Shown here one piece after another: positions 18,576 through 55,409 of a stretch of DNA of 64,000 nucleotides (position 1 is the first letter of the stretch; the number at the start of each line of letters is the position of its first letter). Source of the stretch: an uncultured delta proteobacterium (GTDB lineage: Bacteria; Desulfobacterota; Desulfobacteria; Desulfobacterales; B30-G6). The position numbers were made by a program, and so were the translations under genes. The notes below the pieces were generated by a model. It did not search any database. It worked only from the letters and a program-made list of their open reading frames with translations, and was not told the DNA's origin. Location of the stretch: the NCBI GenBank assembly GCA_963848165.1, contig CAWKCS010000020.1:41180-105179 (forward strand), given 5' to 3'.

Positions 18576-18638
18576 CGCTCGTAAGGAACACCAGCTGCCA
18601 AGCAGGTAAAATCAAATTAATTTGGACTATTAAAAAAA

Positions 18639-18682
18639 AGCGACAACGTCGCGTCAAATAAAATCGCGAAGCGATTTTATTG
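18639..18682. repeat. double-hairpin motif (copy 2 of 3)
   Basis: AGCGACAACGTCGCGTCAAATAAAATCGCGAAGCGATTTTATTG. Confidence 0.7.
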
Positions 18683-18684
18683 GT

Positions 18685-18713
18685 TGTTTACAAACCCTTC
18701 CAGTTGGTATAAT
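18685..18713 (+). promoter_or_regulatory. candidate sigma70 promoter of the PFOR gene (extended -10)
   Basis: Perfect TATAAT at 18708-18713, preceded by TGg (extended -10). The -35 (TTGTTT/TGTTTA) is weak. It lies ~90 nt upstream of the ATG at 18802. Confidence 0.5.
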
Positions 18714-18783
18714 CTAAAAAATTCTTTTGGCATAGCTAAAAAATAAAATTGCAGAGACCATGGATACCACGCGGGTCTAATAA

Positions 18784-22353
<3,570 letters not shown>

Positions 22354-27881: not shown

Positions 27882-28337
27882 CTATAGATTGAAATGCGCT
27901 TTGATCTTAAAGACGCGCGTTGCCGGTAGGTTGAGTATCTCTTCAATACCTGTTTCCTCGGCAATCCGTTGAAGATTGAGTTTGATCTCTTCACGGGAGG
28001 GAGCAATAAAGGTGAACCAGATATTGAAGTGGTTGTTACGCTGGTAGTTATGGGTCACGCCCGGGTATTGATTGACGATTGCGGTAAAGTGCTGGATTTT
28101 ATCCTGTGGGACGGATGCGGCACAGAGGGTACTGACATAGCCTAGTTTTTCCGGGACAAAATTTCCACCAATCCGCCGTATGAGACCTTGTTTTCGCATT
28201 CTGGATACCCGTTTCAGGACATCTGTTTCCTGCAGATTGAGACGATCGGCCACTGCGCGGTACGGGCTATGGGTAATGGGGAAGTCGGATTGTATCCGGT
28301 TCAGAATTTTTTTGTCGATATCGTCAAGTGGTGGCAT
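27882..28337 (-). CDS. Lrp/AsnC-fold siroheme decarboxylase subunit (AhbA/AhbB, NirDLGH-like)
   Basis: 151 aa. DKKILNRIQSDFPITHSPYRAVADRLNLQETDVLKRVSRMRKQGLIRRIG...GVTHNYQRNNHFNIWFT matches the alternative heme biosynthesis proteins of sulfate reducers. Confidence 0.7.
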   Translation of the reverse strand: MPPLDDIDKKILNRIQSDFPITHSPYRAVADRLNLQETDVLKRVSRMRKQGLIRRIGGNFVPEKLGYVSTLCAASVPQDKIQHFTAIVNQYPGVTHNYQRNNHFNIWFTFIAPSREEIKLNLQRIAEETGIEEILNLPATRVFKIKAHFNL

Positions 28338-28405
28338 GTTAGCTGTTCAATCCTTAATTTCAACGCTGCACTATTCTATAGCAAGATGCTGTATCACTAT
28401 CGTTT

Positions 28406-28470
28406 GAGCCGTAAGCTGTAAGCCATAAGCTATAAGCTGCTTACGGCTTATAGCTTATAGCTTAGAGCTG
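28406..28470. repeat. AGCT-type palindromic spacer
   Basis: GAGCCGTAAGCTGTAAGCCATAAGCTATAAGCTGCTTACGGCTTATAGCTTATAGCTTAGAGC. Confidence 0.75.
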
Positions 28471-28853
28471 ATCCGCATATGCAGCTTCCGGGTTCGTGGT
28501 CCATCGAATTCACAGAAAAATATTCCCTGCCACGTTCCCAGCACCAGCTGTCCGTTCTCAATGGCAATCATCTCCGAAGCGCCCACCAGTGTTGATTTGA
28601 TATGTGCCGGTGAATTCCCCTCCAGATGACGATAGCCTGCTTTCCAGGGAATGACCTGGTTGAGCACCATCAATATGTCTGATGGGACACTTGGGTCGGC
28701 ACTTTCGTTGATTGTTACCGCGGCAGTGGTGTGAGGGACGTAAAGAAAACAGAATCCATCCTGGATATCATGGGATTGTAGCGCTGTCCTTATCTTGGTG
28801 GTAATATCGATGAGTTCTGTCTGCTGTTTTGTTTTGATAGTCAGGATCATCAC
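28455..28853 (-). CDS. YjbQ/UPF0047 family protein
   Basis: 132 aa with VPHTTAAVTINESADPSV...HLEGNSPAHIKSTLVG...LGTWQGIFFCEFDGPRTR. Confidence 0.75.
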   Translation of the reverse strand: MMILTIKTKQQTELIDITTKIRTALQSHDIQDGFCFLYVPHTTAAVTINESADPSVPSDILMVLNQVIPWKAGYRHLEGNSPAHIKSTLVGASEMIAIENGQLVLGTWQGIFFCEFDGPRTRKLHMRISSKL

Positions 28854-31549: not shown

Positions 31550-32498
31550 TCACTTAACAAAATCATTGGGATCATCCGGCCGGTATGTATCAAGGGGGGG
31601 CCTTTCATCGAGGCTCATCCCGGCTTCCCAGCCGAACTGTTCGAAACAGTCTTTTTCCAACTTTTTGGTAAACACCCGCATGTTGATTCCCACCGGGCAG
31701 GCACGTTCGCATGCCCCGCAATCGGTACATCGTCCGGCACAGTGAAAGGCCCTTAAGAAATGAAACGTTCGCACGTCCGCGGGATCCTGTCCTTTGCCCA
31801 CCCACTGGGGTTTGGCTTCATCCACGAAGCATGTGGGGCAATAGCAGAGAGGACAGGCATTTCTGCAGGCATAGCAGCGGATGCAGGGTGACAGGAGCGA
31901 TTCAAAATAATCCCATTTCTCCTGGGTCGCCATGGCTTCAATCTCTCGCACATCCGCATACCGGTCCACACCTTGTTGTTCCTCGACCTTTTCCGCCACG
32001 AGCTCGTCATAAAAGACGGGATTGCGGTGGGTACAGACCGCACAGTTTTTCTGCAGGACGTCCGATTTGTTCAGGGTTTTTTCCTTGCCGCCTGCCTTCA
32101 CCTGGACTTTTATCCCCATTTTCAGTCACATCCTGAATTTCATCCGCAAACAGGGAGGCAATTTTGTGCTTGTCGATCATGCCCTTGCAGGGGACACCGA
32201 TCACCACGAGCTGCTCCCGGCTGATTTTGTTTTCGATAATATGGGTTGCGATATTTCTCGTGTCGCAGCCCTTGGCGACAATACCGATTCTTTCTTTGCG
32301 GTTGGTCAGGTAGTTGGCCAGGTTGATACCGCAGTTGCTGTCCCAGACAAACCGGCCGACATCCTCGGGCGTTCTGGCAAAACAGGGCTCATTCATCATG
32401 GGCAGGGTTCCCTTGCGGAATCCGATCACCATCTCCACCGAACAGTCTTTTAACAGGCGTTCGGAGATTTCTTTAATTTTATCTATATAATCTAACAT
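31550..32498 (-). CDS. Fe-S subunit (FrhB-like N-domain plus CX2CX2CX3CPxCYC dicluster; FlxC-like); apparent frameshift at the T-run 32108-32111
   Basis: ORF 32007-32498 (...KHKIASLFADEIQDVTENGDK) and ORF 31550-32119 (...IKVQVKAGGKEKTL...CIRCYACRNACPLCYCPTCF...CTDCGACERACPVG) join if the coding-strand run AAAA is AAAAA. Paralogous to 53695-54840. Confidence 0.6.
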
Positions 32499-32499: not shown

Positions 32500-32931
32500 T
32501 TATGCTACCTTGGCGTCATTTTTTTTAAAGTGCTGTTGCGGTCCCAGGGCTTTAACTTTTTCGGTCACCTCTTTGACCACCTTTACAAACTTGGTGGATT
32601 CAGCCGAGGAGATCCAGGAGAAATGGATACGATCAGACTCGATGCCCATGTGTTCCATCAGGTTCATGAAAAGCGAAAATTTTCGACGAGCATAGTAATT
32701 ACCTTCCAGGTAATGGCATTCGCCGGGATGTCACCCGGACACCCAGACGCCGTCCGCACCTTCTCGAAGCGCGGCCAAGGCAAACTTGGGACTCATTCTA
32801 CCGGTACAGGGTATCCGGATGACCCGAATATTGGGGGGATACTCCATTCTGCTGACGCCGGCAAGGTCTGCGGCGCCGTAACTGCACCAGGTACAAAGGA
32901 AACTGACAATCTTCGGTTCCCATTCAGACAT
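32500..32931 (-). CDS. MvhD/FlxD-type subunit with in-frame UGA (selenocysteine) at 32731-32733
   Basis: [45 protein letters not shown]...[28 protein letters not shown]...[16 protein letters not shown]. The same frame continues for 76 codons after the TGA. The paralog at 54972-55397 has Cys at that position (VLVSGCNPGDCHY). Confidence 0.85.
32731..32733 (-). other. UGA recoded as selenocysteine (MvhD)
   Basis: In-frame TGA at a conserved Cys position, with conserved MvhD sequence on both sides. Confidence 0.8.
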
Positions 32932-33020
32932 TTCTTATCTCCTCTCTCAATTATCAACTTACTAATAACGATTGTATAACTTTAAAGATAGTATATCTTT
33001 TAAACTCTTAACAAACGCCA

Positions 33021-33096
33021 GGATGCTGGGAGGCTATAATGCTTGAAAGCTGTCATCCGCATTTAGCTATCAGCCACCCTCAAACCCTTCCTTTAC
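33021..33096. repeat. composite spacer (AGCT-containing segment plus CCACCCTCAAACCCTTCC tail) between the fusion HdrA and Sec-MvhD genes
   Basis: Read directly: GGATGCTGGGAGGCTATAATGCTTGAAAGCTGTCATCCGCATTTAGCTATCAGCCACCCTCAAACCCTTCC. Confidence 0.6.
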
Positions 33097-36000
33097 ACTG
33101 CCTCATTCATCGCAAATATCTGTGCGAAAATCTGATCGTTGTCAAACCCTTTCAGCTTGATGGCACCGGACCGGCAGGAAGCGACACAAAGACCGCAGCC
33201 TTTACACAGAACCGGATTGATCTTGGCTTTGCCTGCAAAGGGTCCTTCCTCGATAAGCGAGGGCGCCGAATAGGGGCAGATGGAAATGCAGACCTTACAG
33301 GAACTGCAATGCATGGGGACGGTTTCAGCTACGGCACCACTGGTATGAATGGTTTTGCGTGCCAGCAGCGTAACCGCTCTCGATGCTGCCGCTCTCCCCT
33401 GCACGATGGATTCGTCGATGGGTTTGGGATAATGGGCCAGACCACAGAGAAACACACCATCGGTTGAAAACTCCGAGGGACCCAGTTTGGCATGTCTTTC
33501 CACAAAAAAGCCGTCGTCGTTCAGCGGCACCTTGAAAAACTGCGCCAGGGCATCGCCCTTGTTTGGCACTACGGCAGACGCCAGTGTCAGCATGTCGGTG
33601 ACGATTTCCAGTTTTCGTTCCAGCACATGATCCATAACCGTGACGATCAGATCATCACCCTTTATCTCGACCTCGGGTTTGTTTTCCAGGGCGTAGCGGA
33701 TAAAAATAATACCTTTTTCGCGGGCTTCTCTGTAGATATACTCCCGCTCGCCATAGGTCCTGATATCCCGGTAGAGGACATAAACAGTCATTTCCGGGTT
33801 GACTTTTTTCAGTTCCAGCGCATTGTCGATGGCATGGGTACAGCAGACCCTGGAACAGTAAGGTCTTTCCGGCTCTCTTGAACCGACACACTGGATAAAA
33901 ACGGCCGAGGACATTTCCTTGAGCGATGGATCTTGATCCATAAATTTTCGATCGAGATCCAGACTTGTCAAAATTCTTGGGTCATCCCCATAATGATACT
34001 CAGCCGGTTTCAGGGCGGCAGCACCGGTGGCCACCACAGCCACGCCGTATTCCAGGTCCGTTGTGGTGTCTCCGGAAGTGAGGGTGGATTTGAAATTTCC
34101 CACGAACCCGTCTACATTGCTAAGCTCTGTATTCAGGTGCACGTGGACCTTGTCATCCCCCTGGATATCGGAAATGAGTTCCGACAGTTTTTTCTGCACA
34201 TCCTCGCCCGATATGGTTTTAAACAGATTCAGCGCCTGTCCGCCTAGAACATCGCTTTTTTCAATGATATGGGTCTCATAACCCTGCAAACCCAGTGTCT
34301 TGGCAGCACTCATGCCGGCGATGCCGCCGCCGATGACAACAGCTGTCTGGTTTACTTCCAGTTCGGCTTCCTCGAGTGGCTGCATCAGGGCGACTTTGGA
34401 GACCGCCATTCGCACAAGATCTTTGGCTTTTTCCGTGGCCAGATCAGGGTTGTTCTTATGAACCCAGGAGTCCTGATTGCGGATGTTGCACATTTCAAAA
34501 AGGTATTTATTCAGCCCGGCATTGATCAGGGTTTCCTGGAAAAGCGGTTCGTGGGTTTTTGGCGTACAGGCTGCCACCACAATCCTGTTCAAATTTTTCT
34601 GTTTGATGATCTGGGTTATGGTTTCCTGTGTGTCCTGGGCACAGGAGTAGAGGTTGTCCGTGAAATATTCCACATATGGGAGTGTCGCAGCATATTCGCT
34701 TACGGCCGGGACGTCCACAACGCCGGCGATATTGATGCCGCACCGGCAGACAAACACGCCGATTCGCGGTCGTTCCCCGAAGATGTTTGTTTCGGGAATG
34801 ATCTCCGGTATCTGTGTCCGGGTATTCCTGGCCGGGCTCAAGGCCGCACCGGCACTGGCCGCCGCGGCACTGGCATCGATAACCGACTGGGGAATGTCCT
34901 TGGGGCCCTGGAAGGCACCGCACACATAGATGCCTTTGCGCGATGTTTCCACCGGTTCAAACGTCTCGGTTTTACAAAAATTGCCCTCGGTCAGTTCGAT
35001 ACCCAGGTTCTGGGCCAGGGCAATGGTTTTGGGGTCTATCTGCAGCCCGATGGACAGTACGATCTGGTCGAAGGTTTCGGTTTCAAGACCACCGGACTCC
35101 GTAACATAACGGACGGAAAGATCATCGGATCCGTGTACCGGGTCAATGGAGTGGACCCGGCTGCGGACAAATCGCACACCGCTTTCTTTGGCCCTGTTGT
35201 AAAAGCGTTCAAAGTCCTTCCCATGGGTGCGCATGTCCATATAGAAAATGGTGCACTCGAGATCGTCTCCACTGTGCTCCTTGGCAATCACGGCTTCCTT
35301 GATGGCATACATACAGCAGACCGAGGAGCAGTAAGCATTGTCACAGCGGTTGAGATCTCTTGATCCGACGCACTGGAACCAGGCAATTTTTTTGGGCTCC
35401 TTATGGTCGGACATACGGACGAGGTGTCCACCGGTGGGGCCTGAGGCGGACAAAATGCGCTCCATTTCCATGGAGGTGATGACATTGGGGTGCTTGGCGT
35501 AGTTGTAGGAATCAAACTTGGAAGGGTCGAAGGGTTCAAATCCCGGTGCCAGGATAATCGATCCCACATTGAGCTCGACAATTTCATCTTCCATGGTGTA
35601 ATCGATGGCATCCACGCCACAGAATTCAGCACAGACTTTACAACCCCCGGTCTTGAAATGAACGCAGACATCCCGGTCGATTGCCGGTGTGTTAGGAACT
35701 GCCTGTGCATAGGGGACGTAGACCGGTTTGCGGCCCATTAACCCCATGTCATATTCCGATGGAATAGCCTTAACATTTTCCTTGGTTGTAATCAGATTTC
35801 TGACTCTGTCCAGCGTAATATGGCCGGTGGGGCAGACGGATGCACAGGCACCGCATGCCATGCAGATCTCTGTCTGGGTATGGAAGGGCGTGTCGACAGC
35901 GAACTCCAGGCCTCGTCCGGTCAGAGCGATGGCGCTGTTTCCCATCTTTTCGCAGATCCGGGTACAGAGCCCGCAGAGGATGCAGTCGTCATCCTCGGTT

Positions 36001-36350
36001 TTGAAGCGGGGCGCTTCGATACCGTATTTTTTTGCCAGATTCTTCAACAACGGTACTTCCGGGCATCTGGCATACAGCATTTCGACGATCAGTTTGCGTC
36101 CTTCGTGAACGGCCGGTGTATCCGTTTTGACTTCCATTCCTTCCCATATGGGATAGTTGCAGGCGGTCACGAACCGGGTTCTGCGTCCATCAAAGAGTTC
36201 CACCGTGCAGATTCGGCACATGCCGGCCGGTTCCAGGGCCTTGTGATGACAAAGCGTTGGGATGTCGACACCGAATTTTTCGGCTACCTGAAGGATATAT
36301 TGCCCTTCTTCTCCCTGTACTTTTTTCCCATTTAATTTGAAAGTGATCAT
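33093..36350 (-). CDS. fusion protein: NuoG/HydA-type N-terminus (2Fe-2S + 2x4Fe-4S) :: HdrA lacking its first ~120 residues :: complete second HdrA-like unit
   Basis: 1085 aa. Motifs in order: CHHKALEPAGMCRICTVEL; CILCGLCTRICE; CMACGACASVCPTG. Then AIPSEYDMGLMGRKPVYVPYAQAVP...VGSIILAPGFEPFDP...WFQCVGSRD...CCMYAIKEA. Then IGVFVCRCGINIAG...AVVIGGGIAGMSAAK...FIQCVGSRE...CCTHAI...CSSCKVCISICP...CKGCGLCVASC. Confidence 0.85.
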   Translation of the reverse strand: MITFKLNGKKVQGEEGQYILQVAEKFGVDIPTLCHHKALEPAGMCRICTVELFDGRRTRFVTACNYPIWEGMEVKTDTPAVHEGRKLIVEMLYARCPEVPLLKNLAKKYGIEAPRFKTEDDDCILCGLCTRICEKMGNSAIALTGRGLEFAVDTPFHTQTEICMACGACASVCPTGHITLDRVRNLITTKENVKAIPSEYDMGLMGRKPVYVPYAQAVPNTPAIDRDVCVHFKTGGCKVCAEFCGVDAIDYTMEDEIVELNVGSIILAPGFEPFDPSKFDSYNYAKHPNVITSMEMERILSASGPTGGHLVRMSDHKEPKKIAWFQCVGSRDLNRCDNAYCSSVCCMYAIKEAVIAKEHSGDDLECTIFYMDMRTHGKDFERFYNRAKESGVRFVRSRVHSIDPVHGSDDLSVRYVTESGGLETETFDQIVLSIGLQIDPKTIALAQNLGIELTEGNFCKTETFEPVETSRKGIYVCGAFQGPKDIPQSVIDASAAAASAGAALSPARNTRTQIPEIIPETNIFGERPRIGVFVCRCGINIAGVVDVPAVSEYAATLPYVEYFTDNLYSCAQDTQETITQIIKQKNLNRIVVAACTPKTHEPLFQETLINAGLNKYLFEMCNIRNQDSWVHKNNPDLATEKAKDLVRMAVSKVALMQPLEEAELEVNQTAVVIGGGIAGMSAAKTLGLQGYETHIIEKSDVLGGQALNLFKTISGEDVQKKLSELISDIQGDDKVHVHLNTELSNVDGFVGNFKSTLTSGDTTTDLEYGVAVVATGAAALKPAEYHYGDDPRILTSLDLDRKFMDQDPSLKEMSSAVFIQCVGSREPERPYCSRVCCTHAIDNALELKKVNPEMTVYVLYRDIRTYGEREYIYREAREKGIIFIRYALENKPEVEIKGDDLIVTVMDHVLERKLEIVTDMLTLASAVVPNKGDALAQFFKVPLNDDGFFVERHAKLGPSEFSTDGVFLCGLAHYPKPIDESIVQGRAAASRAVTLLARKTIHTSGAVAETVPMHCSSCKVCISICPYSAPSLIEEGPFAGKAKINPVLCKGCGLCVASCRSGAIKLKGFDNDQIFAQIFAMNEAV

Positions 36351-36373
36351 AACAAATAGGTTCCTTGTAAAAT

Positions 36374-38224
36374 CTATCGAATGGCTATTGCATTAAATTT
36401 GCACCCATCATAGCAGATACCGCACTTGATACATTTCTCCTGATCGATAAGATGTGTTTCTTTCTTTTTGCCGGACACAGCATCCTGGGGGCATTTTTTT
36501 GCGCACAGGGTGCAACCCGTACAGGCTTCCTCATCGATCTCATAGTGAAACAATGGTTTACAGACACCTGCAGGGCACTTTTTGTCTCTGATGTGGGCTT
36601 CGTATTCATCCCGGAAGAAGAGAATGTTGGTCAGCACGGGGTTAGGTGCGGACGTGCCGAGCCCGCAAAGGGAAAATTTCTGGAGCATGCTGCCCAGTTC
36701 TTCCAGAAGTTCGATGTCCCCCTCGCGGCCCTCCCCTTTGCAGATCCGCGTCAATACGGCAAGCATCTGCTTGAGCCCTTCCCTGCAGGGATTGCATTGG
36801 CCGCAGGATTCATCTTTCAGAAAATCGACAAAATATCGCGCCACATCGACCATGCAGGTGTCCTGGTCCATGACGATCATACCACCGGAGCCCATTATGG
36901 AGCCCACTTTAGACAGCTCGTCAAAGTCAACCGGGAGGTCCAGGAACTTTTCCGGAATACACCCGCCGGACGGCCCACCCGTCTGAACCGCCTTGAATTT
37001 TTTCTTCTTGGGAATGCCGCCGCCGATGTCGAATATGATCTGACGCAATGTCGTTCCCATGGGCACTTCCACCAGGCCGGTATTGGTGACCTTACCCACC
37101 AGGGAAAATATTTTGGTTCCTTTGCTTCTTTGGGTCCCGATGGCGGCGTACCAGTCTGCCCCCTTGCTGATAATAACAGGAACGTTGGCCCATGTTTCGA
37201 CATTGTTCAGGTTGGTAGGCCCTTGTCGAAAGCCTTTTTCTACCGTGTGCACGTACTTTGCCTTGGGCCGACCCGGTTTTCCTTCGAGGGAGGCCATCAA
37301 TGCTGTGGACTCGCCACAGACAAACGCACCGCCACCCCGGCTGATATGGATGTCGAAATCAAAGCCGGACCCAAGAATGTCGGTACCCAGAAATCCTTTT
37401 TCACGCGCCTTCTCGAGGGCGATGGTCAGGTTGGTAACGGCCAGCGGATATTCATGGCGGACATAAACATATCCTTCGTTGGATCCAATGGCAAAGGCGC
37501 CGATGATCATTCCTTCGATGACACTGTGGGGGTTTCCTTCGAGGATGCTGCGGTCCATGTAGGCTCCGGGATCGCCTTCGTCTGCATTGCAGATGACGTA
37601 CCGTGTACCTTTGTGTTTACGGCAGGTGGCCCATTTGATACCGGTCGGAAAACCACCGCCGCCACGGCCTCTGAGTCCGGAGGCTTTGATCTGGTCGATG
37701 ATGCTTTCCGGGGAAAGGTCAAACAGGGCTTTGGCAAGGGAGGCATAACCGCCAACAGCCAGATAGTGATCCAGGTTTGTGGGATCGATCAATCCATTGT
37801 TGCCGAAAATGATTCTTTCTTGCAGTTTATAGAATGGGATGTCGTGCTCATGGATGATTTTTTTCTTCGTGACTGGATCTTTGAATATCAGGCTGTTAAC
37901 CAGTTCACCCTTTTTCAGGGTTTTTTCGACGATCTCCTTTACATGGTCCACCCTCACCTGGGGGTAAAAGATCCTTTCAGGATGAATCACCATGATGGGA
38001 CCCTTTTCACAGAAACCGTGACAACCGGTAAGTCTGACTTCGACTTCATCCTGCATGCCCTGATCGGTCAGCTCCGCCACCAGCGCCTTATACACGTCGG
38101 CCGTTCCATAGGCGCCGCAGCCCGATCCTGCACAAAGGGAAACAAGCTTTCCGGGCTGCCGATCCTGTTCTTGCAGTTTTTTTCGATAGGTATCTAGCGC
38201 CTCTTTGTTTTTAAATCTTGCCAT
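36374..38224 (-). CDS. NuoF/HydB-like NADH-binding FMN/Fe-S subunit (with N-terminal 2Fe-2S thioredoxin-like and C-terminal 2x4Fe-4S domains)
   Basis: 616 aa with GLRGRGGGGFPTGIKW, CNADEGDPGAYMDR, ESCGQCNPCREG, CTGCTLCAKKCP and CIKCGICYDGC. Confidence 0.9.
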   Translation of the reverse strand: MARFKNKEALDTYRKKLQEQDRQPGKLVSLCAGSGCGAYGTADVYKALVAELTDQGMQDEVEVRLTGCHGFCEKGPIMVIHPERIFYPQVRVDHVKEIVEKTLKKGELVNSLIFKDPVTKKKIIHEHDIPFYKLQERIIFGNNGLIDPTNLDHYLAVGGYASLAKALFDLSPESIIDQIKASGLRGRGGGGFPTGIKWATCRKHKGTRYVICNADEGDPGAYMDRSILEGNPHSVIEGMIIGAFAIGSNEGYVYVRHEYPLAVTNLTIALEKAREKGFLGTDILGSGFDFDIHISRGGGAFVCGESTALMASLEGKPGRPKAKYVHTVEKGFRQGPTNLNNVETWANVPVIISKGADWYAAIGTQRSKGTKIFSLVGKVTNTGLVEVPMGTTLRQIIFDIGGGIPKKKKFKAVQTGGPSGGCIPEKFLDLPVDFDELSKVGSIMGSGGMIVMDQDTCMVDVARYFVDFLKDESCGQCNPCREGLKQMLAVLTRICKGEGREGDIELLEELGSMLQKFSLCGLGTSAPNPVLTNILFFRDEYEAHIRDKKCPAGVCKPLFHYEIDEEACTGCTLCAKKCPQDAVSGKKKETHLIDQEKCIKCGICYDGCKFNAIAIR

Positions 38225-38255
38225 GGTAAAGTATAACCTCCGTTATCCCATGCGG

Positions 38256-38744
38256 TTAAGCTTCCTGCTGCTCGTATTTGTCTAAGATTTCCAATGCACG
38301 CGAACGATCAAGTCCGCCATGGGTATCCTTGTTTACCGTAATTACCGGGCCTGAGGCACAGCACCCGATGCAGCGGACGCCTTCCAGGGTGAAGAGTCCA
38401 TCGCTGCTGGTCTGCCCTTCGGCGATTTTCAGCCGTTCCTCCAGCGCCTCAGTAATTTTTTCAGCACCCCGGACATGGCATGCCGTTCCGGTACAGACAC
38501 TGACAATGTATTTTCCGCGCGGTTCAAGGCTGATGGTTTTGTAAAAAGTGGCGACACTGTAAACCAGACTTTCTTGTATCCCGAGACGTTCGACGAGCAG
38601 GGGAACCACTTCCGGCGGCACGTAATTGTAGATGTCGCTGATGTCCTGCATGATCATCAGGAGTGATTCTTTCTCTTTGCCGTAGTGGTCAATGATGGTG
38701 TTGATTTTATCCCAGTCTATCTCTGCTGAAGTCCTCATAATCAT
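38256..38744 (-). CDS. NuoE/HydC-like 2Fe-2S subunit
   Basis: 162 aa with VSVCTGTACHVRGAEKI...VRCIGCCASGPVITVN. Confidence 0.85.
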   Translation of the reverse strand: MIMRTSAEIDWDKINTIIDHYGKEKESLLMIMQDISDIYNYVPPEVVPLLVERLGIQESLVYSVATFYKTISLEPRGKYIVSVCTGTACHVRGAEKITEALEERLKIAEGQTSSDGLFTLEGVRCIGCCASGPVITVNKDTHGGLDRSRALEILDKYEQQEA

Positions 38745-38831
38745 TCAGATCCTTATGTGTTCTTGATGTCCTTGATAACAGATATCCTTCTTTTCTTTGT
38801 CGTTTATGCAGCAGGTCCGCCCCAATGGAGA

Positions 38832-39215
38832 TCAGGAGGCCACCGTCTGTACGACTGGGCAGTTTTCAACACACGCACCACAGCCTGTACAAAGATCCAT
38901 GTTGATGGTTCTTGCACGTTTTCTGACTTTGACCTTGAAATTACCGGGTTCGCCATCTACGGATTCAAGATCTGCATAGGTGATAAGCTCGATGTTTAGA
39001 TGCCGGCCGACCTCGACCAGTACGGGAGAGATAATTCACATCGCGCAGTCGTTGGTTGGGAACGTCTTGTCAAGCTGGGACATTACCCCGCCAATGGAAG
39101 GTGACTTTTCAAGAAGGTAGACGTAGTATCCGGAATTTGCCAAATCAAGGGCAGACTGCATGCCTGCAATGCCCCCGCCGACAACCAGAACCGATCCAAT
39201 GATATCCTTTTCCAT
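38832..39215 (-). CDS. HdrA N-terminal fragment (127 codons) with in-frame UGA (selenocysteine) at 39036-39038
   Basis: AGGAGA RBS then [127 protein letters not shown]. The 67 codons after the TGA, in the same frame, are canonical HdrA sequence. Confidence 0.8.
39036..39038 (-). other. UGA recoded as selenocysteine (HdrA fragment)
   Basis: The TGA replaces the second Cys of the FPTxDCxxC motif. The paralogs at 59192 (TLDCAACI) and 53597 (SNHCGMCK) have Cys. Confidence 0.8.
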
Positions 39216-39380
39216 ATTTTTTCTCCTGGAAATGAATTGTGGTGATAGATTACCTGCCACCCGGTGGACGAAGCAGCCGGGCGGTCAAACAAAGAATTTA
39301 CCTATATGCTGGGTGTGGGCTTGTCAATAGGAATCGAAAAGAAAAAGATGGAAAAATGGGGAGGCGGGATCCTGAGTGTT

Positions 39381-39429
39381 AGATATAAAAACCCCGATGC
39401 GACCGCAGATACATCCAGGTCGCATCGGG
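39381..39429 (-). terminator. rho-independent terminator after the dual-receiver gene
   Basis: On the minus strand: CCCGATGCGACC-13 nt-GGTCGCATCGGG followed by GTTTTTATAT. Confidence 0.75.
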
Positions 39430-39458
39430 ATTGTTCATTGTGGCACCTGTTCCCGGAA

Positions 39459-41123
39459 TCAGGCAGCCAGGAGAAACGCCTTGTCCGTGGCTTCGCGTAT
39501 TTCATCCGGTGTAAAGGGTTTGGGGAGATAATCCACGGCACCCATGCGCGCCGCTGCCACGGCGGTCTCGATGCTGGCATAGCCGGTGATCATGATGACC
39601 TTTGCCTGCGGGTTTTTATCCCGGATGGTCTGCAGCAGCTCGAGTCCTTTGACACCCGGAATCTTGAGGTCGAGGAGTATCAGTTTATACGGATGGGAAG
39701 AGATGCTTTCCAGGGCTTCCTCTTTGGTAACGGCCTGATCGACCTGGTAACCTTTTTTGAGGAGAATTTTACGGATGTTGTTGTTGACCGCCACTTCGTC
39801 GTCAATGACCAGAATGCTTTTTGTACGGGATTCTTTTGGAAATTCATATAGTTTGGCTTTTTTGGATGCCATCTCTTTCATCATCCCGGCAACATTTTGT
39901 TTTAATTCCTCGTAGGGTACCTGCACTTGGCCGTCGTAGCCCATATGTGCAACGAAATCAGGACCGGTAACAGCGGCAACCTCATCGTAGTCAAAGGGTT
40001 GGTCAACGGCAATGAGTGTTTTCACGTCCACAACCGTTTTCATCTTTGCGGCTCTTTTCTTTTTCGCGAGCTGCGGGCATTTCGCCGTTTTCGTGCCTGC
40101 CTTGCATGTGGCGCCCAGTTTCTTAAAGATGTCACACACCATATTGCCGGTTTCACAGAAGCCTTCCAGGGATTCGGAGGCCGTGATTTCAATGATGGGC
40201 ATGTCCGAACGGGAGAACTGATCCGTATAGGCCTCACCAACCTGGGCGGCGACTTCATCCCGGTCAAAGGGGGCGTCCACATCAATTTTGCCTTTTCCCA
40301 GCATCCTGGACACGTTCTTCTTGAGTTCTTCATAGGGGATAAAAGCCACACCTTCGTTATGCAGAGATTGTACATATTCGGGACCGGTCACTGCGGCCAC
40401 TTCCTCGTAATCAAAGGGCTGGTCGATACCGATCAATTGTTTGACATCGGTTCTGCTTTTCTTTTTGGCGGCTCTTTCTTTCTTTGCCAGCTGGGGGCAT
40501 GTTTGGGTTTTTGTGCCGGCTTTGCAGGTTGCGCCCAGTTTTTTGAAAATGTCGCACACCATGTTGCCCATCTCACAAAACCCCACCAGAGGCTCAGGCA
40601 TTTTGACTTCGATGATGGGCATGTCCGAGGGCCCCAGTGATTTGGCATAGGCTTCTCCGGTTACTGCCGCTACTTCATCAATGTCAAAAGGGATGTCGAG
40701 GTCGATGGCATCGATGAATTCTCTTTCCTCAGAGGTGGTAGGGGCTTCCGCGAGTTCTCCGGCCAGGGCTTTTTCAACGGTGGATCGCAGTTCGTCAGGT
40801 GTGAAAGGCTTGGGAATATAATCCAACGCCCCCATTCGAATGGCCTTTACGGCCGTATCGGTGGATGCGTAGGCAGTCATCATCACGGCTTTGGTGAGCG
40901 GCCACTGTTTTTTGACAAGCTTTAAAAGTTCGAGCCCGTTTTTTCCGGGCATGACAATGTCGGATATGAGCAGGGAAAAGGATTCGACAGCCATTTTTTC
41001 CAAGGCCTCATCGGCGGTTGTGGCATGCACGATTTCATAGTGGTTTTTCTTTAAAATTTTTTCCACATTGTTGCAGATGCTTTTTTCATCATCCACGACG
41101 ATGATTTTGGGTGCTGTTTCCAT
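39459..41123 (-). CDS. dual receiver-domain protein with a tandemly duplicated 140-aa Cys4 central module and no recognisable output domain
   Basis: 554 aa. REC1 (IIVVDDE...LLISDIVMPGKNG...MMTAYAS...KPF) and REC2 (ILVIDDE...LILLDLKIPGVKG...MITGYAS...KPF). Between them, residues ~139-278 and ~279-418 are repeats, each carrying PFDxDEVAA...GFCExGNMVCDIFKKLGATCKAGTKTxxCPQLAKK...PFDYxEVAAVTGP. Confidence 0.8.
   Translation of the reverse strand: METAPKIIVVDDEKSICNNVEKILKKNHYEIVHATTADEALEKMAVESFSLLISDIVMPGKNGLELLKLVKKQWPLTKAVMMTAYASTDTAVKAIRMGALDYIPKPFTPDELRSTVEKALAGELAEAPTTSEEREFIDAIDLDIPFDIDEVAAVTGEAYAKSLGPSDMPIIEVKMPEPLVGFCEMGNMVCDIFKKLGATCKAGTKTQTCPQLAKKERAAKKKSRTDVKQLIGIDQPFDYEEVAAVTGPEYVQSLHNEGVAFIPYEELKKNVSRMLGKGKIDVDAPFDRDEVAAQVGEAYTDQFSRSDMPIIEITASESLEGFCETGNMVCDIFKKLGATCKAGTKTAKCPQLAKKKRAAKMKTVVDVKTLIAVDQPFDYDEVAAVTGPDFVAHMGYDGQVQVPYEELKQNVAGMMKEMASKKAKLYEFPKESRTKSILVIDDEVAVNNNIRKILLKKGYQVDQAVTKEEALESISSHPYKLILLDLKIPGVKGLELLQTIRDKNPQAKVIMITGYASIETAVAAARMGAVDYLPKPFTPDEIREATDKAFLLAA
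39870..40709 (-). repeat. intragenic tandem duplication (2 x 420 bp) encoding the Cys4 module
   Basis: The protein repeat period is exactly 140 aa. Antisense track ORFs 40012-40221 and 40441-40650 are also near-duplicates, so the repeat is visible at DNA level. Confidence 0.85.
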
Positions 41124-41183
41124 GTGACCCTCCTGGTGGTTTCAGTTTGATGGGGGCGATATCGTTATTTGGAGATTAGGAAT

Positions 41184-41199
41184 TGCACAAGGCGTGCCA
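41184..41199 (-). promoter_or_regulatory. sigma54 (-24/-12) promoter of the dual-receiver gene
   Basis: The minus strand reads TTGGCACGCCTTGTGCAAT. That is TGGCACG-N4-gTGC, with the GG and GC dinucleotide start positions 12 nt apart as in TGGCACG-N4-TTGC. It lies ~60 nt upstream of the ATG at 41123. Confidence 0.75.
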
Positions 41200-41533
41200 A
41201 AGAAACTAATTATATTAACCTTATTGAATTTATAGCAAATTATTTATTTCAAGCTGCTATGGCCCTTGAAAAACGTATAAATAAAATATACAGTATGTGA
41301 AGAAAAAATCCTGCAAAACAGAATGCTGTGAGGGTTGAATCCAAATATTTTATCCAACATGATTTCCATATGATATTCTGATATTATATAGAAAAGCGAC
41401 AATTTGGAATACGATTGCAAACCAGAAGAAGTACAAAACGTATAAAATAAATATACATGTATAAAAAATCATTGTAGTTCTACAGTTATGTGTTGTCATA
41501 GATATGTTCAGAGTAACCCATGCATGCAGTGAA

Positions 41534-41720
41534 GGGGTATCCATATTTTTTTTAAAAGACATATCAAACCAAGCCTTGCCTTGTGCCCACCGGATTGATG
41601 ATGAAATACGACTGGTTGTTAGTAACATTAGGCAGTCGAAACATCATCAATCCGGCAGGGCACTACGCTAGTGATGCAGATTGATCATGATATGTCTTTT
41701 AAAAAAAATATGGATACCCC
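41534..41720. repeat. 187-bp nested palindrome (perfect 33-bp outer arms, 21-bp inner arms)
   Basis: GGGGTATCCATATTTTTTTTAAAAGACATATCA (41534-41566) is the exact reverse complement of 41688-41720. The inner arms GTGCCCaCCGGATTGATGATG (41583-41603) and CATCATCAATCCGGcaGGGCAC (41642-41663) also pair. Confidence 0.9.
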
Positions 41721-41820
41721 CTTTTAGCACAGCCCAACGCTTTTTTAGTAAATTCAGTTAGCCGTTGAACCAGTTTAGAAAAGTAGGGGAGCAGGGCATA
41801 AGGGTGGGGGTACACGTAAA

Positions 41821-43251
41821 TCAGGATTCTTCGCCTTGGGAGCGACCAGGCAGGGTAATTCCGTGTTTTTTCATCAAACTCTGAAAGTTGGTACGTTGAA
41901 GGCCGGTTTTTTCACTGGCATGGGTGACATTCCAGTCGTTGTTTATCAGGGCGTTGAGGATGAAATTTTTTTCAACCGTTTGCACGGCTTTCCGGCGAAT
42001 CTCTTTTTTTATGGACTTGAGTTCTTCGTTGGTGGAGGGGGTGTATTCCACCAGATTTTCCAGATCGCCGAATTCGCCCAGGATCGGTAGCTCCTTGACA
42101 CCAATCATATCCCTGTCGCAGAGAATGATCGCCCGTTCGATCACATTCCGTAGCTGTCTAACATTTCCGGGCCAATCAAATGCAAGCAGGCGGCTGGTGG
42201 CGGCCTCATCGAGACCGCTGATCTCTTTTTTCATGGATTGCCCGAACTGCTTGATGAAATGATAGGCAATGGGGAGGATATCCATTTTTCTTTCCCTTAA
42301 GGGTGGAATGATGATCGGATAGACATAGATGCGATAATAGAAATCTTCCCTGAACGATCCTTCGGACACCATTTCCTCGAGGTGGGTGTTGGTGGCAAAT
42401 ATAAGGCGAACATCCACTTTCTTGGGTGATGTCCCGCCCAGAGGCAGAAATTCACGTGTTTCCAGGAACCGGAGGAGTTTTCCCTGGACCTCCATGCTGA
42501 TGTTGCTGATTTCATCCAGGAAAACAGTTCCCTTGTCCGCCAGTGAGAAAATACCGTCCTTTTGCCGATGGGCACCGGTAAAGGCGCCCTTGGTATGACC
42601 GAAGAGCTCATTCTCGAGAAGATTTCCGGACAGGGTGCCGCAATCCACCGCAAAGAATACATTTGATTTCCGTTTGCTGTTTGCATGGACTGCTCTGGAA
42701 ATCAGCTCTTTTCCGGTACCGCTTTCGCCTGTTACCAGAACCGTGGCATCTGTAGGTGCTACCTTTTCGACCATGGAGATGACTTTCCTTATCTTAGGGC
42801 TGCTGCCGATGAGCTGGTGGGAGGTGATTTTTTTTTGACCAATCTGGTTTTGCAGATTCCGGTTTTGCTGCTGTTGTTCCATATCTGTCAAGGCCTGGTG
42901 TACAACTGCCCTGAGTTCGTGGGGTGTAAAGGGTTTGGGGAGATAATCATAGGCCCCCATCTTCATGACTTCCACGGCCGAGGCTACGCTGGCATACCCG
43001 GTGATAACGATGACATGGGTATCGGGATAGGTTTCCTTGACCCTGTAAAGAAGCTCCATGCCACCCAGGCGGCTCATCTTGAGGTCGGTGACGATGATAC
43101 AAAACGGCTCATCCGCCATCATTTTCAATGCATCATATCCATTGAGTGCGTACTGGACATGATGGCCCTGTTTGGAGAGGATTTTGACACAGCTTTGGCA
43201 GATGTTGGGTTCATCGTCAACAATGAGGATCCGCCGCTGTTCAGTGTTCAT
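41821..43251 (-). CDS. sigma54-dependent response regulator (NtrC family: REC, AAA+, Fis-type HTH)
   Basis: MNTEQRRILIVDDE...IIVTDLKMSRLGG; Walker A GESGTGKE; sigma54-contact GAFTGA; C-terminal HTH WNVTHASEKTGLQRTNFQSLMKKHGI. The start at 43251 overlaps the kinase stop (ATGAACACTGA). Confidence 0.9.
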   Translation of the reverse strand: MNTEQRRILIVDDEPNICQSCVKILSKQGHHVQYALNGYDALKMMADEPFCIIVTDLKMSRLGGMELLYRVKETYPDTHVIVITGYASVASAVEVMKMGAYDYLPKPFTPHELRAVVHQALTDMEQQQQNRNLQNQIGQKKITSHQLIGSSPKIRKVISMVEKVAPTDATVLVTGESGTGKELISRAVHANSKRKSNVFFAVDCGTLSGNLLENELFGHTKGAFTGAHRQKDGIFSLADKGTVFLDEISNISMEVQGKLLRFLETREFLPLGGTSPKKVDVRLIFATNTHLEEMVSEGSFREDFYYRIYVYPIIIPPLRERKMDILPIAYHFIKQFGQSMKKEISGLDEAATSRLLAFDWPGNVRQLRNVIERAIILCDRDMIGVKELPILGEFGDLENLVEYTPSTNEELKSIKKEIRRKAVQTVEKNFILNALINNDWNVTHASEKTGLQRTNFQSLMKKHGITLPGRSQGEES

Positions 43252-44682
43252 AAACCTTGTCCTTTGCCAGGGGGAGCTTGATGGTAAAGGTCGTTCCATG
43301 CCCAAGCCTGCTTTCGGCCCCGATGGATCCGTTGTGTTGTTCGACGATGCCGTGGGTAATGGCCAGTCCGAGACCGCTGCCGTCACTCTTGGTTGTAAAG
43401 AACGGGTCAAAAATTTTTACCAGATTTTCTTCGGCAATACCTTCTCCGCTGTCGGCCACGGACACATGAATTTCACGGTTTTCAGGAACATACCGGGTAA
43501 GGACCCGCACATAACCACCGGCGGCGGTGGCCTCGATGGCGTTGAGTACGAGATTGATGAGGGATTGCTGAATCTGGCCCTTGTCCACGAGAACACGCGG
43601 CAAATTGGGACGCCAGGTCCTGTTCCACGGACACGTCCTTGAAGGCCGCCTGTTTTTTTGTCAGCAGGAGACTTTCCTTGACGATGTCGTTGAGATTGTG
43701 TTCTTTTTTGTCCGGTCTGGTCTGCCGGGCAAAATCGAGCAGGCTGGTGACAATCTTTCTGCATCTCAGGGTTTCTTTGGCAATGGTCTCCAATTCCAGG
43801 TACATGGGGTCTTCGGGTCGGGTCTCTTCCTGGAGCAGCATGGCTGTTGTCAAGATGGTGGTGAGGGGGTTGTTGATTTCGTGGGCGACACCCGCCGAAA
43901 GTCGCCCGATGGATGCCAGCTTTTCCTGCTGCATCATGCTCTTCTGAACGTTGATATCACCGGTGATGTCTCTGGATATCTCCACCACGCCCAGGATATC
44001 GCCGTCTTCGATAAGCGGATAGGTGGAGATGGAGTAGTAGATTTCCTTGTCGTCTTTGTCCAGATGAATGTGGGTGGTCTGGGATGGTTCGATGGTTTCC
44101 ATGGTTTTTAACAAGGGGCAGGGGTGCTTCTCCCCGGAGCATGGAAAGGACTGGCGATGGGTAATTTCGTAGCAGTATTTGCCCACCACTTCTTCTCTTT
44201 TGAGTCCCAGCCGGTTCAGGACGGTATTGTTGACGTCGATGATACGGTAGTCATGCCCGATGACCAGAACATCTTCCTGGATCAGTTCGTTGATCATTGT
44301 TTTGTACAGGGCGTTGGCTTCGTAGAGTTCCTGGCTGGTCTTTTTCTGCATGTTCGACACACGCGCGATTTCCCAGAAAAGCTGTGCGGTTCGAGTTGAT
44401 ATGGCGCGGACGTCCGGTCCCTTTTTTATTCAGGATGTCATAGATAATGTCTGTGTTGCCGGTGAGTTCGATGATAAGCTCGATATCGTCCCGGGAAAAC
44501 AGATCATTGTAGTCGGTGGTGGTGAAGAGACCCTTTTCTTTTGCAAGAAGCATACCCGGGGCATCGGTTTTCAGGTCTGCCACCGCAACGACCCTGGGGT
44601 GTATTTTTTCGAATTGGTGCTGATCGATGAGATTCAATAACTGGGCGCATTTTGTACCACCCCCGACGACGGCTATGTTCAT
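43241..44682 (-). CDS. sensor histidine kinase with N-terminal Rossmann-like domain, PAS, HisKA, HATPase; two apparent frameshifts (about 43607-43609 and 44419-44427)
   Basis: Three overlapping track ORFs tile one protein. First MNIAVVGGGTKCAQLL...ILNKKG | PDVRAISTRTAQLFWEIARVSNMQKK...PAS. Then H-box LSAGVAHEINNPL...VSVEQDLAS | NLPRVLVDKGQIQQSLINLVLNAIEA...DSGEGI...GSGLGL. Confidence 0.8.
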
Positions 44683-44737
44683 GGGATTTTCCGGTTCAAT
44701 TGTTAATGGTTACGATTGGCTTTGTTTTCGTTTCCGA

Positions 44738-44862
44738 CTGTCACTTACGCCTTTATCTGTCATTTGCACTACGCGTGTAATTTATTGCTGCTCATAGCTG
44801 ATCGCTTGTAGCTGCGATAAATGACACGAAGTAAATGACCACCAATGACGCGAAGCAAATAA
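44738..44862. repeat. short copy of the GTCATTTGCGCTTCGCG-unit palindromic array
   Basis: GTCACTTACGCC..GTCATTTGCACTACGCG..., then a spacer, then ATGACACGAAGTAAATGAC..AATGACGCGAAGCAAATAAC. Same unit family as 55410-55757. Confidence 0.7.
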
Positions 44863-44959
44863 CATTAGCTTAACTTGACCCTGACTGCTCGCTTTGTATA
44901 CTATTATTTTGAATAAATTTCAAACAGGTGTGGCCCGAAAAGGAAACAAGATGATTTAG

Positions 44960-54840: not shown

Positions 54841-54865
54841 TCATACCTCCTGGGACAACCTGGCG

Positions 54866-55397: not shown

Positions 55398-55409
55398 AAC
55401 GGATCTCCT

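Follow-up and report, generated by a model that had tools for sequence, protein, structure and literature searches.

Results and discussion

Gene organisation of the locus

The window analysed here is a 64,000-nucleotide stretch of DNA from an uncultured delta proteobacterium (GTDB lineage Bacteria; Desulfobacterota; Desulfobacteria; Desulfobacterales; B30-G6), taken from GenBank assembly GCA_963848165.1, contig CAWKCS010000020.1, positions 41,180 to 105,179 of the forward strand. On its minus strand lies a run of genes (39215-28953) in which the flavoprotein HdrA is encoded in two pieces. Genes for a NuoE-like and a NuoF-like protein stand between the pieces, the second of which is fused in frame behind the N-terminal domain of a NuoG-like protein (NuoG-N), and genes for an MvhD-type adaptor, three Flx-like proteins and DsrC follow (Table 1). 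The original prediction, made from the sequence alone, had already placed the NuoE- and NuoF-like genes between two HdrA halves and a selenocysteine (Sec)-containing MvhD, three Flx-like genes and DsrC downstream; coordinates together with Pfam and NCBIfam assignments agree with this, the FlxC-like gene being broken by a frameshift. The whole run looks like one operon, since the sole strong terminator sits just after dsrC: the other minus-strand hairpins listed in this interval, at 39167-39151 (6-bp stem, inside the small gene) and 35475-35460, do not rival its 13-bp stem.

Two genes encode one HdrA fold

The small gene starts with an ATG behind an AGGAG ribosome-binding site and stops 6 codons past the first CxxCxxCxxxCP ferredoxin motif. 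Its product carries an N-terminal GxGxxG Rossmann segment for flavin adenine dinucleotide (FAD) binding (residues 9-47, Pfam), a DCxxC/U pair in the form DCAM-U (residues 56-60, with Cys57 and Sec60) and the first motif of the ferredoxin domain that is inserted in HdrA. In a comparison with all PDB chains, residues 8-121 matched the HdrA structures 8RVV_A (E 1e-47) and 5ODC_A (residues 145-258, E 7e-42). Translation, Pfam and the 5ODC_A alignment thus bear out the content that had been read from the small open reading frame (ORF), namely the first Rossmann segment, DCxxU and the first ferredoxin motif with a stop 6 codons on. It had also been considered that this ORF might be nearer to an unrelated FAD protein, but the best non-HdrA match reached only E 2e-5.

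After the stop of the small gene, the next HdrA residues are found at residue 196 of a gene 2.5 kb downstream, and HdrA is not one continuous polypeptide. Residues 1-180 of the 1085-amino-acid product of that gene form a Fer2_4 plus 2x[4Fe-4S] N-terminus of the NuoG/HydA type, whose best solved match is WorA (9MQX_A, residues 18-179, E 1e-38); its cysteine pattern provides for clusters A1, A2 and A4 as in WorA and BamI, and the His-ligated A3 is missing. A short linker with invariant I187 and T188 follows the last NuoG-N cluster motif and leads into residues 196-436, which align to 5ODC_A 260-495. The prediction that HdrA would resume at about residue 196 behind a NuoG/HydA-type N-terminus is therefore upheld. 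This remainder of the first thioredoxin reductase-like unit (TrxR1-C) contains IPSEYDxGL, the second ferredoxin motif (C229/C237/C240/C244), CVGSRD..YCSSVCCMYAIK with K351, and GPKDIP at its end. Residues C327, C341, C345, C346 and K351 align to C386, C399, C403, C404 and K409 (the flavin-N5 lysine) of 5ODC and, together with the second ferredoxin motif, are invariant down to 37-49% overall identity in the two alignments, A1 and A2, in which invariance was judged.

On the 5ODC_A structure the small piece covers HdrA 145-258 and the large piece 260-495, so that the alignment to a solved HdrA, which had been suggested as a check, tiles one fold at residue 258/260 and the pieces abut without overlap. 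Likewise, residues 1-122 of the small protein joined to 196-1085 of the large one (1012 residues) are collinear with an unsplit 1014-residue protein from another locus, L025, with two single-residue gaps in the junction window. It had been asked whether the large protein might hold a Rossmann/DCxxC segment of its own for the first unit; its sole GxGxxG Rossmann segment (residues 670-705, Pfam) is part of the second unit. From these alignments we regard it as practically certain that HdrA is encoded here as two genes that tile one fold.

The break falls in the loop between both cluster motifs of the inserted ferredoxin domain and leaves four cysteines on the small chain and four on the large one. 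In clostridial-type dicluster ferredoxins, each cluster is ligated by three cysteines of one motif and one of the other. Because the classic 2x[4Fe-4S] fold mixes the motif cysteines in this way, we infer that, given normal folding of the inserted domain, each of its two clusters would draw ligands from both chains, and that the FAD site would likewise be built by both. At this locus the insertion of an operon into a gene has clearly divided a flavoprotein and a dicluster ferredoxin domain between two chains. In BamE of class II benzoyl-CoA reductase (BCRII), the disulfide Cys59-Cys62 lies 3.4 Å from cluster E3 and is the proposed conduit of the low-potential electron to the inserted ferredoxin clusters E5/E6 (bioRxiv 10.64898/2026.04.10.717634). 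Since the Rossmann segment and the counterpart of this disulfide, Cys57/Sec60, both reside on the small protein, this 14-kDa chain would by analogy contain most of the low-potential gate.

The rest of the large protein is a second HdrA unit, in which residues 526-757 correspond to 5ODC 2-234 and residues 900-1081 to 5ODC 468-649. It has the N-type domain cysteines C535, C537, C570 and C595 (Cys invariant in the alignment) and keeps the TrxR core with a CxGSRE..CSxxCC cluster motif and the C-terminal 2x[4Fe-4S] ferredoxin domain. Because DCxxC and the inserted ferredoxin domain are absent and D842 takes the place of the lysine (K351 in the first unit), this unit is, by analogy, of the non-bifurcating TrxR2 type described for BamE. 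A second unit in the same polypeptide had been predicted and is there, but it is not the full HdrA unit that had been supposed.

The cassette between the two pieces is of the electron-bifurcating kind. The NuoF-like protein has as PDB matches WorB (9MQX_B, residues 4-614, E 8e-235), HydB (8A6T_B and 7Q4V_B, residues 1-613 versus HydB), the NiFe-Bfu chain 7T2R_B and the Bfu-type NfnB 9N5U_B. It combines an N-terminal thioredoxin-like [2Fe-2S] domain, a core for flavin mononucleotide and NADH, and a C-terminal 2x[4Fe-4S] domain, which is the composition of bifurcating BfuB; the N-terminal [2Fe-2S] and C-terminal dicluster domains set bifurcating BfuB apart from plain NuoF (Schut et al. 2022). 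With the tiling, the cassette between the halves and the in-frame NuoG-N::HdrA fusion, the predicted picture of an NADH-linked bifurcating module set into a two-piece HdrA is borne out at the level of the genes. Taken together, gene content and alignments show an operon predicted to encode a tandem BamE-like HdrA whose first, bifurcation-competent TrxR unit consists of two polypeptides, with a HydBC/Bfu-type set spliced in at the break.

Table 1. Features of the predicted operon and of the genes preceding it (positions are those of the window)
Feature	Position	Strand	Evidence and remarks
PAS histidine kinase, sigma-54 response regulator and double-receiver protein	39459-44360	minus	Pfam
Small subunit, 127 codons	39215-38832	minus	In-frame TGA; Pfam FAD_oxidored and Fer4
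In-frame TGA (putative Sec) of the small gene	39038-39036	minus	Within DCAM-U; counterpart of the second Cys in BamE Cys59-Cys62
NuoE/HydC/BamG-like, 162 amino acids	38744-38256	minus	Thioredoxin-like [2Fe-2S]; PF01257 E 5e-47; NCBIfam NuoE/HoxE
NuoF/HydB/BamH-like, 616 amino acids	38224-36374	minus	Pfam; full-length PDB matches
Fused NuoG-N::HdrA protein, 1085 amino acids	36350-33093	minus	Pfam; 5ODC_A and 9MQX_A matches
Fused protein, residues 1-185: NuoG/BfuA N-terminal domain	35796-36350	minus	Fer2_4 and Fer4_7; WorA 9MQX_A
Fused protein, residues 186-510: linker and rest of first TrxR unit	34821-35795	minus	5ODC_A 260-495
Fused protein, residues 511-1085: N-type domain, second TrxR unit, C-terminal ferredoxin	33093-34820	minus	5ODC_A 2-234 and 468-649
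MvhD/FlxD/BamF-like adaptor, 143 amino acids	32931-32503	minus	PF02662 E 4e-53; NCBIfam VhuD; putative Sec67 at TGA 32731-32733
FlxC-like iron-sulfur protein, frameshifted	32498-31550	minus	315 amino acids in relatives
FlxB-like, 354 amino acids, 4Fe-4S dicluster	31382-30318	minus	Fer4_22; NCBIfam ShyB/HydB/AsrA; 9NEZ_B E 5e-40
FlxA-like, 284 amino acids	30262-29408	minus	FAD_binding_6, NAD_binding_1, DHODB_Fe-S_bind; NCBIfam
DsrC, 105 amino acids	29270-28953	minus	PF04358 E 3e-35; both C-terminal cysteines present (CKMAGLPKPTGCV)
Intrinsic-terminator-like hairpin, 13-bp stem and T run	28909-28881	minus	Directly 3' of dsrC

Conservation and distribution of the split

The small piece was searched against protein clusters at E <= 1e-10 and found 4755 of them; the best 120 were almost all free-standing proteins of 122-145 residues with 68-90% identity. 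The 1085-residue protein had more than 120 cluster representatives with 76-97% identity and lengths of 1082-1092 residues, Desulfosarcina and Desulfatitalea among them, and within Desulfobacterales it is highly conserved. A genome scan with one genome per species gave a sample of 80 loci (cited below by L numbers), which were classified by tblastn, and three further contigs fetched through homologues of the small piece showed the same gene order. The same synteny, which the original prediction had suggested looking for in other sulfate reducers, was found in 31 of the 33 genes for a tandem HdrA with the NuoG-N fusion, where the small gene is followed by NuoE, NuoF and then the fused gene; the remaining two, L010 and L067, are cut by contig ends. 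Labels of the fused type include Desulfobacterales, Desulfatiglandales, Ca. Desulfacyla and Eth-SRB2. Others are Spirochaetes, Pirellulales, Phycisphaerae, Planctomycetota, Thermoanaerobaculia, Acidobacteriaceae, Cloacimonadota, Armatimonadota, a Bacteroides-labelled bin and a Ca. Altiarchaeales bin. These labels are record titles, and odd ones may reflect binning errors.

The form of the 5' junction differs between phyla. At Desulfobacterota loci the small gene ends 6-19 codons beyond the CP motif; in seven loci, all from other phyla (L051, L055, L066, L075, L078, L080 and L085), the small piece is instead fused in frame to the N-terminus of NuoE, giving the layout [HdrA-N::NuoE] - NuoF - [NuoG-N::HdrA-C]. 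The ORF of L055, for example, has 286 amino acids and joins the NuoE [2Fe-2S] domain to the FAD Rossmann segment and the Fer4 motif. Since fusions of the small piece to NuoE and of NuoG-N to HdrA both exist, the NuoE-NuoF-NuoG-N module is tied to the HdrA break at either end. Just such a layout would result if a nuoE-nuoF-nuoG' operon were inserted into the hdrA frame, as the 3' end must fuse for translation and the 5' end may fuse or stop. In the Bam structure, BamG touches BamI through its N-terminal helical bundle (bioRxiv 10.64898/2026.04.10.717634), a contact that fits the tethering of NuoE and NuoG-N at one HdrA break.

In the window itself, the small gene and nuoE share one frame, with 28 sense codons between them bounded by two TGA (38745-38834, minus strand), which looks coincidental. 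Read-through from the small gene into nuoE was rejected for Desulfobacterota, as the frames that are shared in the window are different in L001 and L005.

At the Sec position of the small gene, homologues have TGA in 14 loci and Cys in 15 (DCAMC or DCSMC), and position 67 of MvhD is a stop codon in 32 loci (TGA in the window) and Cys in 16. Hairpins resembling selenocysteine insertion sequences in the 67-69 nucleotides after each TGA had folding energies no better than those of shuffled sequences (z +0.48 and -0.60). Because these hairpins are not distinctive, the assignment of Sec rests on the alignment of Cys with TGA.

Allelic forms of the tandem HdrA

Locus L025 (metagenome-assembled genome Ww484) carries the unsplit 1014-residue tandem HdrA, also with Sec, at the syntenic place. 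Its flanks are collinear with the window at 83-92% DNA identity (window 54583-44977 and 32952-23358 align), and the downstream genes are nearly the same (MvhD 98%, FlxA 95% and DsrC 98% amino-acid identity; the stretch is 88-92% identical as DNA). Between the flanks, 12 kb of the window (32952-44977) are replaced by 3.5 kb of L025 (9765-13300), the downstream breakpoint being the 3' end of hdrA, and the two sequences share about 70% identity in the HdrA-homologous DNA. Neither the regulators (histidine kinase, sigma-54 regulator and double-receiver protein) nor NuoE, NuoF and the NuoG-N segment are present in L025. The three regulatory genes are also found 5' of the split cassette in L005, L007, L011, L013 and L016, and they appear to be inherited together with it in several Desulfobacterales. 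When the split and the unsplit allele are compared, identity is lowest in the second half of the inserted ferredoxin domain (49%) and highest in the C-terminal ferredoxin domain (81%) and the N-type domain (85%).

Tandem HdrA occurs in four forms: unsplit (43 instances), with an in-frame GltD/NfnB-like insert of about 470 residues between the ferredoxin motifs (HdrL type, 12 instances), with a receiver-domain insert (2 instances, window 50115-53597 and L025), and split with the NuoG fusion (33 instances). Among loci with enough DNA, MvhD-FlxC-FlxB-FlxA, with or without DsrC, then follows in 14 unsplit, 9 GltD-inserted and 11 split cases. Two forms can share one gene cluster, since L043 ('Desulfobacterium sp. 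TRIP AH-1', 7126-19845) holds the split NuoG-fused set followed by an unsplit tandem HdrA and MvhD-FlxC-FlxB-FlxA, and L024 (Ca. Desulfacyla euxinica, 2049-13884) the split set with MvhD followed by another tandem HdrA with MvhD.

Part-by-part distances were compared by Mantel tests over 17 split loci of Desulfobacterota. Distances of the small piece correlated with those of TrxR1-C (r 0.64, p 1e-4) and of NuoG-N (r 0.48), whereas the correlation with the adjoining NuoE was not significant (r 0.14); the small subunit thus evolves with its structural partner and not with its genomic neighbour. NuoE and NuoF correlated closely with each other (r 0.91), and two NuoEF lineages cut across HdrA similarity. 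L006, for instance, is 94-95% identical to the window in the small piece, TrxR1-C and the second unit, with only 47% in NuoE and 61% in NuoF, and the NuoEF pair has therefore been exchanged as a unit. In a neighbour-joining tree of the HdrA body, which carries no support values, split and unsplit HdrA and those with inserts are intermingled, a pattern that agrees with recombination at the 5' end.

Downstream partners

The MvhD-like adaptor is of the canonical short form, without the extension of more than 100 residues by which BamF docks BamI. The FlxA-like protein has FAD, NAD(P)H and [2Fe-2S] sites of the AsrB/sulfhydrogenase-gamma/NfnA type, and the FlxB-like protein is of the AsrA/sulfhydrogenase-beta type. 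A +1 frameshift near 32109-32116 interrupts the FlxC-like gene (GGGGATAAAAGT versus GGAGA-AAAAAT in L025), with one base more than in L025 and L005. It produces overlapping ORFs of 163 and 189 amino acids, which tblastn matches as pieces q1-130 and q128-315 of a 315-residue relative. FlxC is intact in relatives, and flxA, flxB, flxC and flxD (mvhD) adjoin hdrA as in FlxABCD-HdrABC. In L003 and L014, HdrC-HdrB replace Flx, and in L055, L061 and L064 they lie upstream of the split set. Past the terminator of the window (27882-28853, minus strand) are YjbQ/UPF0047 and an AsnC-type siroheme-decarboxylase protein (NirD/AhbA-like); YjbQ is also found 3' of dsrC in L005.

Proposed electron flow

From the fusions and the conserved gene order, the NuoEF/NuoG-N (Bfu) module and HdrA very probably belong to one physical complex. 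For its wiring we propose the following. Electrons from NAD(P)H would pass from FlxA through FlxB, FlxC and Sec-MvhD to the HdrA FAD, as proposed for FlxABCD-HdrABC. The HdrA flavin would bifurcate them, and the high-potential electron would leave via the CVGSRD/CC cluster to a thiol/disulfide acceptor, for which DsrC is the candidate (HdrBC in other lineages). The low-potential electron would run over the Cys-Sec pair, the N-type domain cluster, the split ferredoxin domain and NuoG-N to the HydBC-type core and not to free ferredoxin; this core would then distribute it to NAD+ and ferredoxin, or the reverse. The two bifurcation modules would thus work in series, in the order opposite to that of BCRII, and the mean potential demanded of the low branch would probably be lowered, to about -400 mV (NAD+ and ferredoxin) where ferredoxin alone requires about -500 mV, like a gear change.

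Several observations make us prefer the low-potential arm as the site of attachment. Both tethers sit at the inserted ferredoxin domain, and HdrL-type paralogues carry a GltD/NfnB-like nucleotide-linked module in the same loop. The second half of this domain is what diverges most between the split and unsplit alleles, and MvhD lacks the extension by which BamF docks BamI. In WorA, moreover, the third-substrate module connects through the cluster nearest the C-terminus (A4), and A4 is kept in NuoG-N. Flx is the natural input, since the unsplit L025 has near-identical MvhD, FlxA and DsrC, with FlxA as its only nucleotide site and no Bfu module.

Against this stand several points. In the solved BCRII, electrons enter by way of the Bfu module, and NuoG-like BamI passes them to the C-terminal ferredoxin domain of BamE (bioRxiv 10.64898/2026.04.10.717634). 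The linker of 15-30 residues behind NuoG-N is compatible with BCRII-like docking to that domain. The frameshift in the FlxC-like gene is either a sequencing error or a sign of an impaired copy. By Pfam, the operon 39215-28953 encodes no HdrB or HdrC that could lead from the high-potential cluster to DsrC. Finally, the co-evolution signal is confounded by recombination. Weighing both sides, we consider a two-piece HdrA with a HydBC-type module on its low-potential arm, taken as a whole, to be on balance the probable explanation. The attachment to that arm is by itself a possibility that we place somewhat below even, and the net reaction in the form drawn here (NAD(P)H to DsrC thiol/disulfide plus NAD+ and ferredoxin) is doubtful.

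The alternative that survives best is wiring as in Bam, in which NuoEF would confurcate NADH and reduced ferredoxin and pass electrons through NuoG-N to the C-terminal ferredoxin domain and MvhD, and on to the HdrA flavin; the high-potential exit would then be FlxCBA/NAD(P)+ or DsrC, and the split ferredoxin would serve an acceptor more negative than ferredoxin. For modules of this kind it is the one arrangement that has been solved by experiment, the C-terminal ferredoxin domain and MvhD are both kept, and the loci with HdrCB and without Flx (L014, L055, L061 and L064) show no other input module nearby. We nevertheless hold it unlikely, though worth serious attention: a Pfam scan of the window ORFs found no low-potential acceptor module such as a BamBC-like protein of the AOR family, and the operon offers no sensible acceptor; MvhD is without the docking extension of BamF; the unsplit allele has the same Flx/MvhD/DsrC genes with no Bfu module; and the module is tethered on both sides to the inserted ferredoxin domain.

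It could also be supposed that TrxR1-C is an inactive relic, that NuoEFG and the second unit do the work, and that the 127-residue protein is unrelated or dispensable. The second unit does have its own Rossmann segment and Fe-S sites, and split flavoprotein folds are unusual. Yet the catalytic and ligand residues of TrxR1-C are kept at the identities given above, the small gene is present in every checkable locus and co-varies with TrxR1-C, and the second unit, which has neither the lysine nor DCxxC nor the inserted ferredoxin domain, would be structural and non-bifurcating by analogy with BamE, all of which makes this reading very improbable. The real frameshift nearby in FlxC, and gene callers breaking the small gene at TGA, might suggest that the split arose through faulty sequencing or assembly, or that an insertion recently disrupted the gene in this one genome. 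More than 30 independent assemblies from many phyla, however, share the break, the stop position and the fusion junction, more than 120 protein clusters keep the 1085-residue architecture, and the small gene has its own ribosome-binding site and start codon. This leaves an artefact next to no probability; conservation effectively refutes it.

Returning to the preferred low-potential-arm wiring, its widest form is a widespread two-stage bifurcating supercomplex, with the Bfu module on the low-potential arm of HdrA in the reverse order to benzoyl-CoA reductase, clusters and the FAD site spanning the chain break, and the inserted ferredoxin loop acting as a general plug-in port that may be empty or hold GltD, a receiver domain or a NuoEFG operon. 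We put this forward tentatively.

Relation to described complexes

The closest known system is the BamDEFGHI part of BCRII (Geobacter metallireducens and Desulfosarcina cetonica), for which a cryo-electron microscopy structure has been described; our comparison draws on the text of that preprint, and domain composition was matched by description and not by alignment (bioRxiv 10.64898/2026.04.10.717634). Both systems have a fused HdrA dimer (a first unit with Cys-x-x-Cys, the N5 lysine and the inserted ferredoxin, a non-bifurcating second unit and a C-terminal ferredoxin), a Sec-containing MvhD-type adaptor, a HydC-like NuoE, a HydB-type NuoF and a short NuoG-N with [2Fe-2S] and two [4Fe-4S] clusters. 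Both combine two different bifurcation modules, in one assembly in BCRII and here as known from genes. The preprint presents two distinct bifurcation modules in one complex as not reported before and ties them to aromatic ring reduction (bioRxiv 10.64898/2026.04.10.717634).

The differences are equally plain. BamE is one polypeptide and BamI is separate, whereas here HdrA is split and NuoG-N is fused to its C-terminal part, so that the order is E-N, G, H, I::E-C, F in place of E, F, G, H, I. MvhD is short, with Sec at position 67 versus 19 in BamF, and the attachment point suggests that the Bfu module is on an output arm and not on the input arm. FlxCBA and DsrC follow here (HdrCB in other lineages). 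A Pfam scan found no BamB tungsten subunit of the AOR family and no BamC among the ORFs of the window, and no CCG-domain protein (BamD/HdrD-like) in the operon 39215-28953; an HdrD/BamD-like gene (59185-61512) is present only in a neighbouring operon. Because BamB, BamC and BamD are absent from the operon, the locus is not a member of BCRII.

The downstream half resembles FlxABCD-HdrABC of Desulfovibrio vulgaris and the Hdr/Flox system of Syntrophobacter fumaroxidans, in which FlxA/B/C/D-like genes lie next to hdrA and DsrC is a proposed thiol/disulfide partner, encoded here at the operon end. HdrA, however, is tandem, split and combined with a HydBC-type module, and since HdrB and HdrC are missing from the operon it is not a canonical FlxABCD-HdrABC. 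The S. fumaroxidans papers describe both Hdr/Flox and HdrL. In HdrL (Desulfobacterium autotrophicum, S. fumaroxidans), as here, an extra nucleotide-linked module enters the loop between the cluster motifs of the inserted ferredoxin, and HdrL-type loci (e.g. L032) are followed by the same MvhD-FlxC-FlxB-FlxA-DsrC genes. The insert of HdrL is one domain in one polypeptide, whereas here it spans three proteins' worth of genes, and for that reason the host HdrA is cut in two.

With BfuABC/HydABC (WorABCSL of Acetomicrobium mobile, 9MQX; HydABC, 8A6T and 7Q4V), the locus shares a NuoF like WorB/HydB over its full length, a NuoG-N like WorA and a NuoE like HydC/NuoE; the third-substrate module is a covalently fused HdrA flavoprotein and not a hydrogenase, formate dehydrogenase, WOR or GltD domain. 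With MvhADG-HdrABC of methanogens (5ODC, 8RVV) it shares the HdrA fold, the cofactor motifs, Sec/Cys in DCxxC and the MvhD adaptor. Unlike that complex it has no hydrogenase and is a tandem fusion in place of a homodimer, the N- and C-terminal domains of the first unit being supplied by the second.

The genome paper of Desulfotignum phosphitoxidans lists nuoEFG-mvhD-hdrA gene units and does not mention a split. Full-text literature searches, whose coverage is incomplete, returned no description of the split, the NuoG-N::HdrA fusion, the HdrA-N::NuoE fusion, the attachment point or the allelic series. The original prediction's statement that it could not match this arrangement to a described complex therefore needs qualifying: the module set is the BamEFGHI part of BCRII and the downstream half is that of FlxABCD-Hdr/DsrC, and it is for the split, the fusion and the attachment point that no description was found.

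Neighbouring genes

Directly 5' of the small gene, scans with sigma-70 and sigma-54 consensus sequences gave nothing convincing, with scores at chance level. A sigma-54-type site with one mismatch, TGGCACGCCTTGTGCA, lies at 41184-41199 (minus strand), about 60 nucleotides 5' of the double-receiver gene that precedes the operon; matches of equal quality occur in the window at chance frequency.

Further upstream, the window encodes a second, unsplit tandem HdrA of 1160 amino acids (50115-53597, minus strand; also L025 1003-4425), with a receiver domain (residues 192-301) right after the inserted ferredoxin domain. We know of no description of a phospho-regulated HdrA. A further Hdr-like set lies 5' of this gene (53695-61512, minus strand) and includes the HdrD/BamD-like protein at 59185-61512 (775 amino acids, two dicluster and two CCG domains), an HdrA-N plus GltD-like protein (773 amino acids), a 385-residue Fe-S protein matching the TrxR C-part of HdrA, an MvhD-like ORF (about 54996-55385) and an FrhB/FlxC-like protein (381 amino acids).

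In two loci from Phycisphaerae and Pirellulales (L061 4114-7182 and L055 7182-10004), the NuoF-like protein is fused to a GltD/NfnB-like domain (1022 amino acids), and the stretch from NuoF to the fused HdrA gene holds five accessory genes (DRTGG, CBS-HATPase, PHP, HATPase). Similar sets occur in HydABC hydrogenase operons.

Conclusions

The pair of HydBC-type and HdrA-type modules that BCRII brings together is found here hard-wired by gene fusion, in organisms and operons unconnected with benzoyl-CoA. With the split layout present in more than 30 genomes from many phyla, this looks like a second, widespread way to join two bifurcating machines, and the fusions mark where the modules attach. 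The unsplit, GltD-inserted and split forms, which occur with the same Flx/MvhD/DsrC partners, make the role of the low-potential arm of HdrA directly testable. In sulfate reducers, the complex would be a candidate for connecting NADH, ferredoxin, NAD(P)H and DsrC in the cytoplasm.

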